Notes under the pieces: model-generated
What the model saw: only the letters and a program-made list of their open reading frames with translations
Database searches by the model: none
What the model was told of the DNA's origin: nothing
Origin: a virus
Taxonomy: Duplodnaviria > Heunggongvirae > Uroviricota > Caudoviricetes
Length of the DNA stretch: 17,173 bases
Strand: one strand, 5' to 3'
Virus record (IMG/VR): IMGVR_UViG_2675903324_000013
Translations under genes and position numbers: made by a program
Part shown: piece by piece, positions 2,298 through 4,212 of the stretch
How the letters are laid out: each line of letters starts with the position of its first letter
Numbering within the stretch: the stretch's first letter is position 1

Positions 2298-2402
2298 TTA
2301 TTCTTTGGGTTCAATACCGCGTTGCTGTAATTCTTTTCGGATTATTCGTTTTATCCAAGCTGCTAAAGAGTCATCACCGTCTTGTTGTTGTGCTTTTTCC
2401 AT
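2298..2402 (-). CDS. Very small ORF (34 aa, MEKAQQQDGDDSLAAWIKRIIRKELQQRGIEPKE); possible remnant of the C-terminal helix of an RHH-like repressor
   Basis: Occupies the same position relative to the conserved block as the RHH-like gene 2983..3162; weak C-terminal similarity (AAW/AAM…IKR…R); weak RBS. Confidence 0.15.
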   Translation of the reverse strand: MEKAQQQDGDDSLAAWIKRIIRKELQQRGIEPKE

Positions 2403-2465
2403 CTTTTCCCGTAAGTCAGGATCTAAACGGAACTGGAAAGGAGGATTACCACGCCTTTCATTTTT

Positions 2466-2520
2466 GTGTGTTGACACGTCAATTACACTCCATATAATGT
2501 GTTTATGTGTATATACACAT
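2466..2520 (+). promoter_or_regulatory. Near-consensus sigma70 promoter TTGACA (2471-2476), 16-bp spacer, TATAAT (2493-2498), flanked by GTGT-N4-ACAC operator-like sites
   Basis: Hexamers read directly. GTGTgttgACAC at 2466-2477 overlaps the -35; a 16-bp perfect palindrome ATGTGTATATACACAT at 2505-2520 overlaps the predicted transcription start. Confidence 0.5.
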
Positions 2521-2544
2521 TACACACAACTAGCACAAAAAACA

Positions 2545-2578
2545 ACGCCCCGCAGTGATGGGAACACATACGGGGCGT
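2545..2578 (-). terminator. Conserved stem-loop, copy 1: 8-bp GC-rich stem ACGCCCCG / CGGGGCGT with 18-nt loop; followed by a T-tract on the minus strand
   Basis: Homologous to 3293-3325 with one compensatory base-pair change in the stem and a near-identical loop (…GGAACACATA…). Confidence 0.4.
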
Positions 2579-2697
2579 CTAACCAAACCATTAATTGAGG
2601 TAACGATTATGGCTATAAAAGAGCATAGCTTACTCTTTATACACACACAAACGCCCCGGAAACGGAATAATCCGTTTCATAGTTCGGTTTTGTGTAC

Positions 2698-2925
2698 TCA
2701 TCCTGGCGGGCGATTCTTACGGGACTTTAGCCGCCGTGGGCAGCTTGCTAAAAATGCCTCCAACGCGAATAGTCCAGGTTTCATTTCTATCGGTATTAGT
2801 TGGATATTCAGAGGATTAGCCAGTTCGGCTTCAAGGCGAGCACAGGTTTCTAACTGCCTTTGCCGAATGATTTCATCTTCTTGCGTCTGCGTGTCTTGTA
2901 TTGGTGATAGTGTGTTGTTGGTCAT
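2698..2925 (-). CDS. Hypothetical small protein, MTN… paralogue 2 (75 aa)
   Basis: Start codon inside conserved block copy 2, directly downstream of the RHH-like gene on the same strand and in the same frame phase; helical-looking segment EDEIIRQRQLETCARLEAELAN. Confidence 0.35.
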   Translation of the reverse strand: MTNNTLSPIQDTQTQEDEIIRQRQLETCARLEAELANPLNIQLIPIEMKPGLFALEAFLASCPRRLKSRKNRPPG

Positions 2926-2978
2926 GGTACTGCCCTGTAAAGCAATGCGCCGTAGTACCTCACGCCACGGCGCTGATG
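2920..2978. repeat. Conserved 59-bp block, copy 2
   Basis: Same stem GCGCCG / CGGCGC (2947-2952 / 2968-2973); differs from copy 1 mainly in the loop and flanks. Confidence 0.6.
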
Positions 2979-2982
2979 GTGA

Positions 2983-3162
2983 TTATTCTGATTCTTTGGT
3001 CTTGCGGCGCTGGCGGCGTTTGATTTCGCCGCGCATGGCTGCGTTTATAAACTGCCCCGTGCTTTCACCTTCTTCTTTCACGTTCTCCATGCCTTCAATA
3101 ATTTCATGGGCAATACGTGCAGTTACAGATTGTGATTTTGCATTCTTTGGACCCGTTGCCAT
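2983..3162 (-). CDS. Putative ribbon-helix-helix (CopG/Arc/MetJ-like) DNA-binding protein; candidate switch repressor
   Basis: ATG at 3162 preceded by GAGGGG with 6-nt spacing. 59 aa with an N-terminal basic beta-strand (SQSVTARIA) followed by two helices (HEIIEGMENVKEEG / TGQFINAAMRGEI) and a basic tail. Operator-like boxes lie immediately upstream. The six-frame track start at 3201 lacks an RBS. Confidence 0.4.
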   Translation of the reverse strand: MATGPKNAKSQSVTARIAHEIIEGMENVKEEGESTGQFINAAMRGEIKRRQRRKTKESE

Positions 3163-3183
3163 GTTTAACCCCTCATGTTTTTG

Positions 3184-3264
3184 GTGTAAGACAATATACA
3201 CGAAAAAAAAATATTTTGAAGGGTTGACGTGTAAGACACCGTTATTTTACATTGTGTCTTACAC
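3184..3264. promoter_or_regulatory. Divergent promoter-operator region: three GTGTaagACAC boxes and back-to-back promoters
   Basis: Boxes at 3184-3193, 3229-3239 and inverted at 3254-3264. Leftward promoter: -35 TTCAAA / 16 bp / -10 TATATT (complement of 3193-3220). Rightward promoter: -35 TTGACG (3224-3229) with a weak -10 (TTACAT or TACATT) about 17-18 bp downstream. Confidence 0.45.
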
Positions 3265-3292
3265 CTTGTTAATGCAAGGTACAGAAAAGACG

Positions 3293-3325
3293 AAACCCCG
3301 CAGTGCTGGAACACATACGGGGCTT
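3293..3325 (-). terminator. Conserved stem-loop, copy 2: stem AAACCCCG / CGGGGCTT with 17-nt loop; T-rich tract on the minus strand
   Basis: Homologue of 2545-2578; lies in the 5' leader of the rightward operon and upstream of the leftward promoter. Confidence 0.4.
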
Positions 3326-3354
3326 CTAACCAACAACGTAAACTAGGAGCCGTT

Positions 3355-3552
3355 ATGGTTGCTGTAAATCATATACCACACCTTGTACACACACAAACTG
3401 CCTTTGTGTGGCGTTTTCTGGCACTGAGTGCCGGAGAATCTCAAATCATCCACGTCACCGCCTGGACGGAACGCGAAGCGCGTAGCCGTTGCCCGTCCGG
3501 TTGTGTTGCTGTATTTGCCGCCCGTATTCGTCAGGAGGTGCGCCATGATTAA
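3355..3552 (+). CDS. Hypothetical protein (65 aa), first gene of the rightward small-ORF operon
   Basis: AGGAG 6 nt upstream of the ATG; stop overlaps the next start (ATGATTAA); the first ~15 codons are conserved with a degenerate copy at 2609. Confidence 0.4.
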   Translation: MVAVNHIPHLVHTQTAFVWRFLALSAGESQIIHVTAWTEREARSRCPSGCVAVFAARIRQEVRHD

Positions 3553-3757
3553 TCTGTCACTTACTGACCTTAACCGCATTCAGTTTCGTGAGAAATTCAC
3601 AGGGCAGCTACTGGTCAATGTGGATAAAGGTCGCGTGGTGTGTAATTACTACTTACCAGATGAAGCAATTGTCGCCACAAGGGAATCATTACAGGAAATC
3701 ACAAAACGTGCCGGAATGATTAACACGAATATTCAGGGGATGCTTTATGCACAATAA
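3545..3757 (+). CDS. Hypothetical protein (70 aa)
   Basis: ATG at 3545 preceded by AGGAGG; the six-frame track ORF 3428..3757 has an upstream start without an RBS. Confidence 0.45.
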   Translation: MINLSLTDLNRIQFREKFTGQLLVNVDKGRVVCNYYLPDEAIVATRESLQEITKRAGMINTNIQGMLYAQ

Positions 3758-3986
3758 AACCACACCGGACGCAGCCGCCGAAGCCATCAAAACGCTGATG
3801 CACGCGCTGATTGATATTTCTGTTATCGCGGACAGGGCACATAAGCACGCCACCAGCGAAACAGAATATGCCGGGGCTTTCGTTCCTCACTCACTGGCTG
3901 TTATGCAATTTAGTGCTGATATGGCACTGAATGAGGCTAAAACCATCCTGATTACTGATTGTGAAAATGGGGGGGGTTATGCGTGA
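3747..3986 (+). CDS. Hypothetical protein (79 aa)
   Basis: ORF with GGGGA RBS; short overlap with its neighbours, consistent with an operon. Confidence 0.5.
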   Translation: MHNKTTPDAAAEAIKTLMHALIDISVIADRAHKHATSETEYAGAFVPHSLAVMQFSADMALNEAKTILITDCENGGGYA

Positions 3987-4212
3987 TGATCGTTTTAATT
4001 CCCTGAAACAAGAATTTTCCGGCGTTCCTGATGATGCGGCTGATGCGCTTTCGTCAATGCCAGAACTTATTAGAGCGGCTTTTTTCTTACTTTCCACGAA
4101 AGAATATAAATCAACGGGACTTGATGTACTGAATATCGCCGCCGATTATGCGGAATATGTGGCAGAGGCGCGTTACAGAAGAAAATTTCCTGAGGATGTA
4201 AGCCATGCGTGA
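3979..4212 (+). CDS. Hypothetical protein (about 77 aa; start uncertain, alternative GTG at 3961)
   Basis: ATGCGTGA overlap with the upstream stop; G-run RBS. Confidence 0.4.
   Translation: MRDDRFNSLKQEFSGVPDDAADALSSMPELIRAAFFLLSTKEYKSTGLDVLNIAADYAEYVAEARYRRKFPEDVSHA

Follow-up and report, generated by a model that had tools for sequence, protein, structure and literature searches.

A predicted SymR-like antisense RNA opposite the Icd-like gene of an Escherichia coli phage-inducible chromosomal island

The window analysed here, a stretch of 17,173 nucleotides from a Caudoviricetes virus record (IMG/VR IMGVR_UViG_2675903324_000013), is a capsid-forming phage-inducible chromosomal island (cf-PICI) sited between roxA and phoQ of Escherichia coli. 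It carries an integrase gene, a gene for an AlpA-family regulator and genes for replication and for capsid and terminase functions, with phoQ at its right end. Its attachment site and layout are those of the prototype island EcCIEDL933 (bioRxiv 10.1101/2022.09.08.507074). The regulatory region is duplicated in two diverged tandem modules, A (~2037-2690) and B (~2698-3400), each of which has two small leftward genes, a divergent promoter/operator, one hairpin and the start of an open reading frame (ORF) related to the phage Icd-like family. The two hairpins, HP1 in module A and HP2 in module B, are the subject of this report. Each is predicted to form the 3' stem-loop and the terminator of a SymR-like cis-antisense RNA that would repress the Icd-like gene, a reading which we hold to be fairly probable.

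Two regulatory modules and their hairpins

The genes and promoters that frame the hairpins are the following.

1-1230: integrase gene of the island
1605-1793: gene of the AlpA-family regulator (Pfam PF05930)
2298-2477, minus strand: YlcI/YnfO-like small protein of module A, 59 amino acids (weak match to NF041551, E 5e-4, under the cut-off)
2471-2498, plus strand: predicted rightward promoter of module A, TTGACA-16-TATAAT, 12/12 matches
2609-2686, plus strand: truncated Icd-like ORF remnant of module A, 25 amino acids, whose homology stops just beyond the predicted antisense -35
2983-3162, minus strand: divergent YlcI/YnfO-family small protein of module B, 59 amino acids (NCBIfam NF041551, E 5.5e-18)
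3224-3253, plus strand: predicted rightward promoter of module B, TTGACG-18-TACATT, with the inverted repeat GTGTAAGACAC / GTGTCTTACAC on its flanks
3355-3552, plus strand: Icd-like gene, 65 amino acids, first of the rightward early operon (NCBIfam NF033153 phage_ICD_like, E 5.8e-18)

The promoter-proximal leftward gene is YlcI/YnfO-like in both modules and, judging by its position, its product in module B is presumed to be the repressor of that module. Neither the small leftward proteins nor the Icd-like protein has a match in Pfam, and their names come from NCBIfam; the Icd-like annotation is also given in RefSeq relatives. The Shine-Dalgarno sequence AGGAG (3345-3349) and the AUG (3355-3357) of the Icd-like gene lie within the antisense RNA predicted below. 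The operators differ between the modules (TGTGTATATACACA in A, GTGTAAGACAC...GTGTCTTACAC in B), as do the RNA variants. Module A keeps a rightward promoter of perfect consensus and an intact antisense RNA gene despite its 25-codon ORF remnant, and its rightward transcript would run antisense into the leftward genes of module B.

The initial annotation of this DNA had placed two hairpins at 2545-2578 and 3293-3325. Both are present there with the loops it described, and they are detailed below together with the structures that the minus strand forms at the same places; copies A and B are the predicted RNAs of the respective modules.

2545-2552 / 2571-2578, plus strand: HP1 inverted repeat ACGCCCCG / CGGGGCGT, perfect over 8 bp, loop CAGTGATGGGAACACATA
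3293-3300 / 3318-3325, plus strand: HP2 inverted repeat AAACCCCG / CGGGGCTT, 7/8 pairs on this strand, loop CAGTGCTGGAACACATA
2544-2579, minus strand: stem-loop 2 of copy A (HP1), followed by GUUUUUUG (2536-2543)
3292-3326, minus strand: stem-loop 2 of copy B (HP2), 15 bp with one bulged U, loop UCCA and one G.U pair
3282-3291, minus strand: U-rich tail of copy B, GUCUUUUCUG, to which the 3' side of the stem adds UUUC

The 8-bp stem attributed to both hairpins is perfect in HP1, but not in HP2, whose third pair (3295-3323) reads A.C on the plus strand but forms a G.U wobble on the minus strand, a detail that had been overlooked. The compensatory change at stem position 2 was confirmed, with C-G at 2546-2577 in HP1 and A-T at 3294-3324 in HP2. 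The long loop did not hold. On the minus strand the supposed 18-nt loop continues to pair through U.G and A-U pairs with one bulged U, giving a stem of 14-15 bp with one bulge and an apical loop of 4-7 nt, and the picture of an 8-bp stem with an 18-nt loop is an artefact of reading the plus strand. Minus-strand folds reach -23.3 kcal/mol for both HP1 and HP2 (z -4.65 and -5.13, with 0/200 shuffled sequences as good), and plus-strand folds -18.4 kcal/mol (z -3.3) and -13.2 kcal/mol (z -2.0), respectively.

The T-tract announced after each hairpin on the minus strand was found as GUUGUUUUUUG and UUUCGUCUUUUC, and both sites have the anatomy of a terminator on that strand, the -23.3 kcal/mol stem being directly followed by UUGUUUUUUG or UUUCGUCUUUUC. 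On the plus strand the hairpin is followed by an invariant box, TCTAACCA, and by no T-run.

Loci for comparison were gathered by homology of the Icd-like protein, independently of the hairpin, and comprise 3 genomic and 80 metagenomic loci and 6 exact-protein look-ups. They contain 26 distinct hairpin variants (alignment A2), all of which have on the minus strand a GC-rich stem of 14-15 bp, a loop of 4-7 nt and a U-rich tail. Pairing across these variants holds in 95.9% of the cells on the minus strand versus 81.7% on the plus strand, a count in which the compared sequences are related and mosaic and the cells are not independent events, which weighs against taking it at face value. Of the cells without a Watson-Crick pair, 53 form G.U on the minus strand, where the plus strand has A.C, and 1 shows the opposite arrangement; the G.U pairs occupy at least 5 different stem positions and come from different lineages. 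Three pairs feature double changes, neither the observed pairing nor the covariation score is reached in any of 500 shuffles, and alignments slid out of register pair in only 36-56% of the cells. The stem position at which HP1 and HP2 differ is split 13:13 between C-G and A-U, and the minus-strand folds are 5-10 kcal/mol more stable than the plus-strand ones in nearly every variant. One relative, L086, has a hairpin of non-homologous sequence at the same position.

The same holds for the whole predicted RNA. In a model-guided alignment (A7) of 44 distinct RNAs with 27 pairs, 94.4% of the cells are paired, 12/27 pairs have double changes and 0/500 shuffles reach any of five measures, figures that lean towards the model by construction, which counts against them, as the alignment was fitted to the covariance model R1 described below; slid controls pair in only 38-50% of the cells. 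RNAalifold applied to a plain MAFFT alignment recovers stem-loop 2 but no more than 3 pairs in stem-loop 1. As that alignment does not bring the leader classes into consistent columns, stem-loop 1 was judged per class and on the model-guided alignment.

Because of the strand asymmetry of G.U and A.C, the compensatory changes and the non-homologous hairpin of L086, we conclude that selection has acted on the structure of a minus-strand RNA, which is very probable from the aligned sequences. The idea of the initial annotation that structure and not sequence is selected is thereby borne out by the 26-variant covariation, the 44-RNA alignment and the replacement hairpin of L086. The covariation analysis across homologous islands that had been set beforehand as a check gave a stem that is conserved and covarying (95.9% paired, 3 double-change pairs). 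The proposal of a terminator or insulator on the minus strand is favoured by the same asymmetry (53 G.U cells versus 1), and it is quite likely that each hairpin is, as predicted from its sequence, a leftward Rho-independent terminator. HP1, being downstream of the leftward genes of module B, may terminate these as well.

A link that had been drawn between the ACACAT motif of the loop and the operator half-sites could not be upheld. What was taken for the loop is mostly stem and varies freely among relatives (for example CACTGTTGGAGCAGTA and CAAGTGTCATTACCACTCG). The link was rejected as hairpin and operator types assort independently, with the unrelated operators TGTGCGCACA, GGTGTACACC and GTGTTAAACAC beside the same hairpin type; the module B operator GTGTAAGACAC itself lacks ACACAT.

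The predicted antisense RNA and its likeness to SymR

The hairpins had been described in isolation, while each is only the 3' half of a larger RNA gene with two stem-loops, which had been missed. The parts of this gene, with RNA ends as predicted from sequence, are the following.

3284-3360, minus strand: predicted SymR-like antisense RNA, copy B, ~77 nt, AACCAUAACGGCUCCUAGUUUACGUUGUUGGUUAGAAGCCCCGUAUGUGUUCCAGCACUGCGGGGUUUCGUCUUUUC (-31.9 kcal/mol, z -5.5)
2536-2614, minus strand: predicted SymR-like antisense RNA, copy A, ~79 nt, AGCCAUAAUCGUUACCUCAAUUAAUGGUUUGGUUAGACGCCCCGUAUGUGUUCCCAUCACUGCGGGGCGUUGUUUUUUG (-32.1 kcal/mol, z -5.3)
3328-3360, minus strand: stem-loop 1 of copy B, whose 5' AACCA pairs with UGGUU of the box and whose apical loop GCUCCUAGUUUA holds the anti-Shine-Dalgarno CUCCU
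3325-3332, plus strand: conserved box TCTAACCA (minus strand UGGUUAGA), which supplies the 3' half of the basal stem in stem-loop 1 and the linker to stem-loop 2
3368-3373, minus strand: predicted -10 hexamer of copy B, TATGAT, in codons 5-7 (N-H-I) of the Icd-like ORF
3391-3396, minus strand: predicted -35 hexamer of copy B, TTGTGT, with a 17-nt spacer (weak, 3/6)
2622-2627, minus strand: predicted -10 hexamer of copy A, TATGCT, with its -35 TTGTGT at 2645-2650

The full-length plus-strand controls have a z of -0.9 for the 77-mer of copy B and of -3.9 for copy A. Stem-loop 1 keeps its stem in every leader class though the sequences differ, its mean fold being -11.0 kcal/mol on the minus strand versus -5.9 kcal/mol on the plus strand, with 1-3 G.U pairs per variant. 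The box adjoins every hairpin variant that was recovered by BLAST without use of the box, and it is invariant in alignments A2 and A4 (instances collected with the box as anchor). This invariance is explained by the first nucleotides of the RNA, which pair with UGGUU of the box in stem-loop 1. Rightward promoters of sigma-70 type end 67-82 nt upstream of the box in ~45/54 of the distinct upstream regions of relatives.

The promoter signals of the antisense RNA are arranged with the same regularity. In 42/42 distinct downstream sequences TATGAT or TATGCT is found on the minus strand 35-38 nt from the box, a spacing that is kept despite a 7-nt shift of the ATG and differing amino-terminal peptides (MVAVNHI, MAGTQHT, MRNHT). 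The main classes have the -35 TTGTGT with a 17-nt spacer; it is missing from some classes, and one of these features an extended -10 TG instead. The predicted start of copy B, A3360, lies 7 nt downstream of the -10. In every class the predicted start coincides with the base of stem-loop 1, and two adjacent stem-loops follow.

SymR measures 77 nt and is transcribed from a promoter within symE, whose translation it represses without need of Hfq or RNase III (Kawano, Aravind and Storz 2007, PMC1891008). Its -10 is established by mutation, two silent changes there having eliminated the RNA (PMC1891008). A permissive Rfam scan of twelve island relatives placed the SymR model RF01809 on the minus strand, at full length (model 1-77), over the predicted RNA, with 33.9 bits in L043, 32.8 in L089 and 24.7 in L015. 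The L043 match has an E of 0.008 in 38 kb, or of 2.9e-5 when only that stretch is searched. In the window the model reaches 22.1 bits on copy B (3289-3360, minus strand), with its 5' end at the predicted start A3360.

Similarity is also detectable in the other direction. A covariance model, R1, was built from 15 island RNAs, all of a single leader class; it recognises each of the remaining classes on the minus strand with 28-63 bits, the plus-strand matches having only 11-14 bits. In the window it matches copy A (2536-2615, minus strand) with 56.1 bits and copy B (3284-3355, minus strand) with 50.4 bits. With filters off, the best match of R1 in the 3.5-kb symR locus of K-12 is the annotated symR itself (19.4 bits, E ~1e-4), at 3338-3417 versus the annotated 3336-3412; R1 E-values are rough, and this tempers the match. 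Global alignment of island RNA and SymR by sequence only gives 44-50 identities in 77-82 nt (z 1.7 to 5.5), the plus-strand controls being below the null. The promoter register is identical as well: symR reads TAGAAT, 7 nt, A, GU, CAUAAC and the window TATGAT, 7 nt, A, AC, CAUAAC.

The likeness extends to the organization of the locus. Like SymR (RyjC), the island RNA would be a cis-antisense RNA of ~77 nt opposite the 5' end of its target mRNA, with a promoter inside the target ORF and a start 3 nt within it, features that for the island RNA come from sequence prediction only. Both have two adjacent stem-loops joined by UUAG, an anti-Shine-Dalgarno in the first and a GUGUU...GCAC apex on the second; K-12 SymR has the same two-hairpin shape, and the island box corresponds to its UGAUUAG. 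The target is under a transcriptional repressor in both cases, a presumed one in the island. In contrast to symE, which is repressed by LexA (SOS), the island gene faces a YlcI/YnfO-type protein and island-specific inverted-repeat operators, with no LexA box evident. The targets differ too, SymE having an AbrB/MazE fold while the island RNA faces a gene matching NF033153 (Icd-like), and the island RNA resides in a mobile phage satellite and has many sequence variants. The island RNA is SymR-like but not a member of RF01809, since its scores are below the threshold of that family and its target is not SymE.

The sequence and the parallel with SymR together suggest how the locus might work, and from them we infer the promoter, the RNA ends and the termination. 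The RNA would start 3 nt inside the Icd-like ORF, at A3360 in copy B and A2614 in copy A, from a sigma-70 promoter contained in codons 5-14. Transcription would proceed leftward through the start codon and the Shine-Dalgarno sequence, cover most of the 5' untranslated region and stop at the hairpin and U-tract ~20-25 nt short of the start site of the rightward promoter. The product, of ~77-79 nt and two stem-loops, would present the anti-Shine-Dalgarno CUCCU in the loop of stem-loop 1 and end in the hairpin described here as stem-loop 2. That such a discrete SymR-like small RNA exists is, on this sequence evidence, a somewhat better than even prediction.

The predicted RNA is perfectly complementary to the translation-initiation region of the Icd-like gene. 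By analogy with SymR on symE it would most likely act by blocking ribosome binding on the Icd-like mRNA, and we give translational repression of this gene an even chance. Such repression would lock the expression of a potentially toxic cell-division inhibitor at the post-transcriptional level and, through polarity, also that of the replication and packaging operon behind it; the polarity on downstream replication genes is one that we infer from the models of SymR/symE, P1 c4-icd-ant and P4 cI-kil. The family name (host cell division inhibitor Icd-like) suggests toxicity of the protein. The RNA lock would add to the divergently encoded YlcI/YnfO-type repressor, and the terminator would shield the rightward promoter and operators from antisense read-through.

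Several points weigh against this interpretation. Its main weakness is that the antisense RNA is a prediction from sequence. The -35 is weak (3/6), and poor in two leader classes, while the -10 overlaps conserved codons (N/Q-H-T/I), and coding constraint could explain part of its conservation. A simple terminator scan of the window flagged neither hairpin, which is accounted for by the bulged base in the stem, and the U-tract is interrupted by G or C. All island scores are below the RF01809 gathering cut-off of 61 bits, copy A has no RF01809 match in the Rfam scan, and the entire window has none to any Rfam family at gathering thresholds. K-12 SymR has no U-tract, in contrast to the U-tract terminator of the island RNA, and the 3' ends of the two thus differ. 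The toxicity of the Icd-like protein is putative.

Rival readings and other RNA systems

The structure and U-tail of the minus strand would fit as well a stand-alone intrinsic terminator or insulator that stops leftward transcription and guards the divergent promoter/operator, with HP1 also ending the leftward operon of module B and no discrete RNA being made. HP1 does lie downstream of the two leftward genes of module B (2698-3162), and the weak -35 of the proposed antisense promoter speaks for this possibility. It is nevertheless unlikely. Single-module islands encode nothing leftward to the right of the hairpin, upstream of it, and a source of the minus-strand transcript is therefore still needed in them; nor would a bare terminator be expected to come with a -10 at fixed distance, a second conserved stem-loop at the predicted start and reciprocal matches to SymR models.

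The other two explanations depart from the minus strand altogether. In the initial annotation the plus-strand hairpin belonged to the 5' leader of the rightward transcript; there it could stabilise the mRNA, bind a protein or act in the manner of an attenuator. The hairpin DNA does lie in that leader, 30-45 nt downstream of the predicted rightward promoters (2471-2498 and 3224-3253), HP1 folds on the plus strand (-18.4 kcal/mol, z -3.3) and the R1162 antisense RNA model gave weak plus-strand matches (18.1 bits in the window, 28.8 in L086, for a cut-off of 55). The leader structure itself is quite improbable. Of the 54 wobble-type cells, 53 have G.U when the minus strand is read and A.C when the plus strand is; pairing on the plus strand comes to only 81.7%, the copy B 77-mer has a plus-strand z of -0.9, R1 attains only 11-14 bits there and no T-run follows. 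A site acting as DNA, either a palindrome bound by a protein or a recombination site, would be in keeping with a GC-rich inverted repeat at a mosaic junction, and a recombination boundary is one possible meaning of the invariant flanking box TCTAACCA. A palindrome recognised by a protein would be expected to have neither wobble pairs that differ between the strands nor a conserved bulge, nor half-sites that vary freely with compensation, nor a non-homologous replacement such as that of L086 at the same place, which makes a DNA site highly improbable. The reading of the hairpins as the 3' end of a SymR-like antisense RNA was retained.

Known RNA systems of phages and plasmids share some features with the predicted RNA. 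The C4 RNA of the icd/ant immunity module of P1 and P7 and the related CI RNA of P4 (RF01695, RF03163) are likewise small RNAs; they control the translation of a short Icd-type ORF that opens the early operon in a phage-like element. Both arise by processing of the sense transcript and work through short loop complementarities, whereas the island RNA would come from the opposite strand and be fully complementary to its target. A C4 immunity RNA of P1/P4 type upstream of the Icd-like gene of the window was rejected: the C4 model RF01695 (cut-off 45 bits) has no match in the window at the gathering threshold or at E up to 10, and Rfam scans found neither isrK nor a1b1 there. This test had the power to detect C4, because relatives bearing an insertion score 69-82 bits, and for those relatives the C4 assignment holds.

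The relatives in question have an insertion of 360-470 bp between the SymR-like RNA and the Icd-like gene, with isrK at 62-80 bits and C4 at 69-82 bits (L053 1252-1437 and 1828-1915; L048, L051, L055, L056 and L043 1239-1437; L019 878-1082). Some of them add c4-a1b1 targets and another C4 that lies downstream of the Icd-like gene. The isrK/C4 insertion is an RNA immunity cassette like P1 immI inside E. coli phage-inducible chromosomal islands (PICIs), and RefSeq places an ORF for an 'ash family protein' across it.

Sar of P22 and OOP of lambda are short antisense RNAs with a promoter in or next to the target and a terminator hairpin at the end; Sar covers the ribosome-binding site of the regulatory gene ant, and OOP is complementary to cII mRNA. 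The island RNA would also be short, with its promoter inside the target, a terminator hairpin and a position over the ribosome-binding site of the target, but no similarity in sequence or model was detected and the genetic context is different. In type I toxin-antitoxin loci such as hok/Sok and tisB/IstR a small antisense RNA represses translation of a small protein that arrests growth. The island arrangement would be analogous in opposing an antisense RNA to a potentially growth-arresting small protein, with the difference that the Icd-like gene heads a long operon and is not a stand-alone toxin.

The R1162/RSF1010 countertranscript RNA (RF00043) resembles the island RNA in its two stem-loops, its UAACCA-like linker and its location beside a ribosome-binding site. 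The matches to this model (window 2543-2616, plus strand, 18.1 bits; L086 1430-1502, plus strand, 28.8 bits) were rejected, being below the cut-off of 55 with E 0.3-4 and on the disfavoured strand, and are treated as chance or mirror-image resemblance. Model and matches share the motif order hairpin, UAACCA, stem-loop, AUGGCU. Some island relatives have an AAA_25 (RepA-type) helicase for replication.

Distribution, significance and neighbouring features

The element is present in 1355/5426 complete E. coli genomes (~25%), and the RefSeq records among the matches listed have no RNA annotation at it. The phage database gave no match to the region and a scan of genome contigs returned three loci only, all from Escherichia or Shigella, on which grounds the element looks restricted to Escherichia at the level of similarity searched. 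The prototype EcCIEDL933 (L092, strain ATCC 43894/EDL933), which is amenable to experiment, carries the same RNA at 3963-4036 on the minus strand, with 39.4 bits. RefSeq places there a hypothetical protein of 247 amino acids (3267-4010, plus strand) across the operator region and hairpin and lists no divergent YlcI-like gene; this ORF may be a mis-annotation or reflect a different regulatory layout.

Cis-antisense RNAs over ribosome-binding sites are well known as a kind, and the island RNA is one so far unannotated. No prior description of the element was found in the literature, which is weak evidence as most subscription papers were outside the search. Induction of PICIs and cf-PICIs in Gram-negative bacteria was described in terms of AlpA and activation by helper phages (bioRxiv 10.1101/2022.09.08.507074), and the searched literature yielded no RNA layer in this process. 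If the predicted RNA is made, it would lock the first early gene of these satellites post-transcriptionally, would give SymR, so far an orphan chromosomal antisense RNA, relatives in mobile elements, and would explain the long ORFs that annotation pipelines place across the region. Were the proposal true, two silent His-codon changes are predicted to de-repress the early operon of the island.

The RNA is diverse, with at least 8 hairpin types and 5-6 leader types, and up to six islands reside together in one genome. A more speculative view makes the SymR-like RNA more than an additional brake, namely the principal determinant of immunity in E. coli PICIs and cf-PICIs and one specific to each island, its stem-loops having diversified into non-cross-reacting classes that are shuffled as modules. 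We rate this as rather doubtful. If it were true, each co-resident island would silence only its own early operon, induction by a helper phage would have to overcome or out-titrate the RNA and the chromosomal symE-symR would be the domesticated relic of a satellite or prophage module.

Further hairpins were observed around the two modules. On the plus strand at 3390-3420 the terminator-like hairpin CACACAAACTGCCTTTGTGTG, followed by GCGTTTTCTG, lies within codons 12-21 of the Icd-like gene (HTQTAFVWRFL) and overlaps the -35 of the predicted antisense promoter. A segment of ~37 nt at this hairpin is found in two copies in the insertion-bearing relatives (second BLAST match at 1509-1545). Recombination at this segment may have removed the C4 cassette from the present island; alternatively the hairpin could serve as attenuator or operator.

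A direct repeat of 75 nt (2230-2304 and 2915-2989, 84% identity) is located between the two leftward genes of each module. It holds a conserved hairpin GCGCCG-(15 nt)-CGGCGC without U-tract, which might serve to process or stabilise the RNA of the leftward operon. At 1934-1967 a hairpin GCGGC-(11 nt)-GCCGC, preceded by A7 and followed by CTTTCTG, resembles a bidirectional terminator that would separate alpA from the end of leftward operon A. The junction of modules A and B has a hairpin AAACGGA-ATAA-TCCGTTT at 2654-2678. On the minus strand a terminator-like site is found there (2667-2654, TTCCGTTTCCGGGG then CGTTTGTGTG), just past the stop codon of a leftward ORF of 75 amino acids (2698-2925) that is absent from the RefSeq annotation of a near-identical record.

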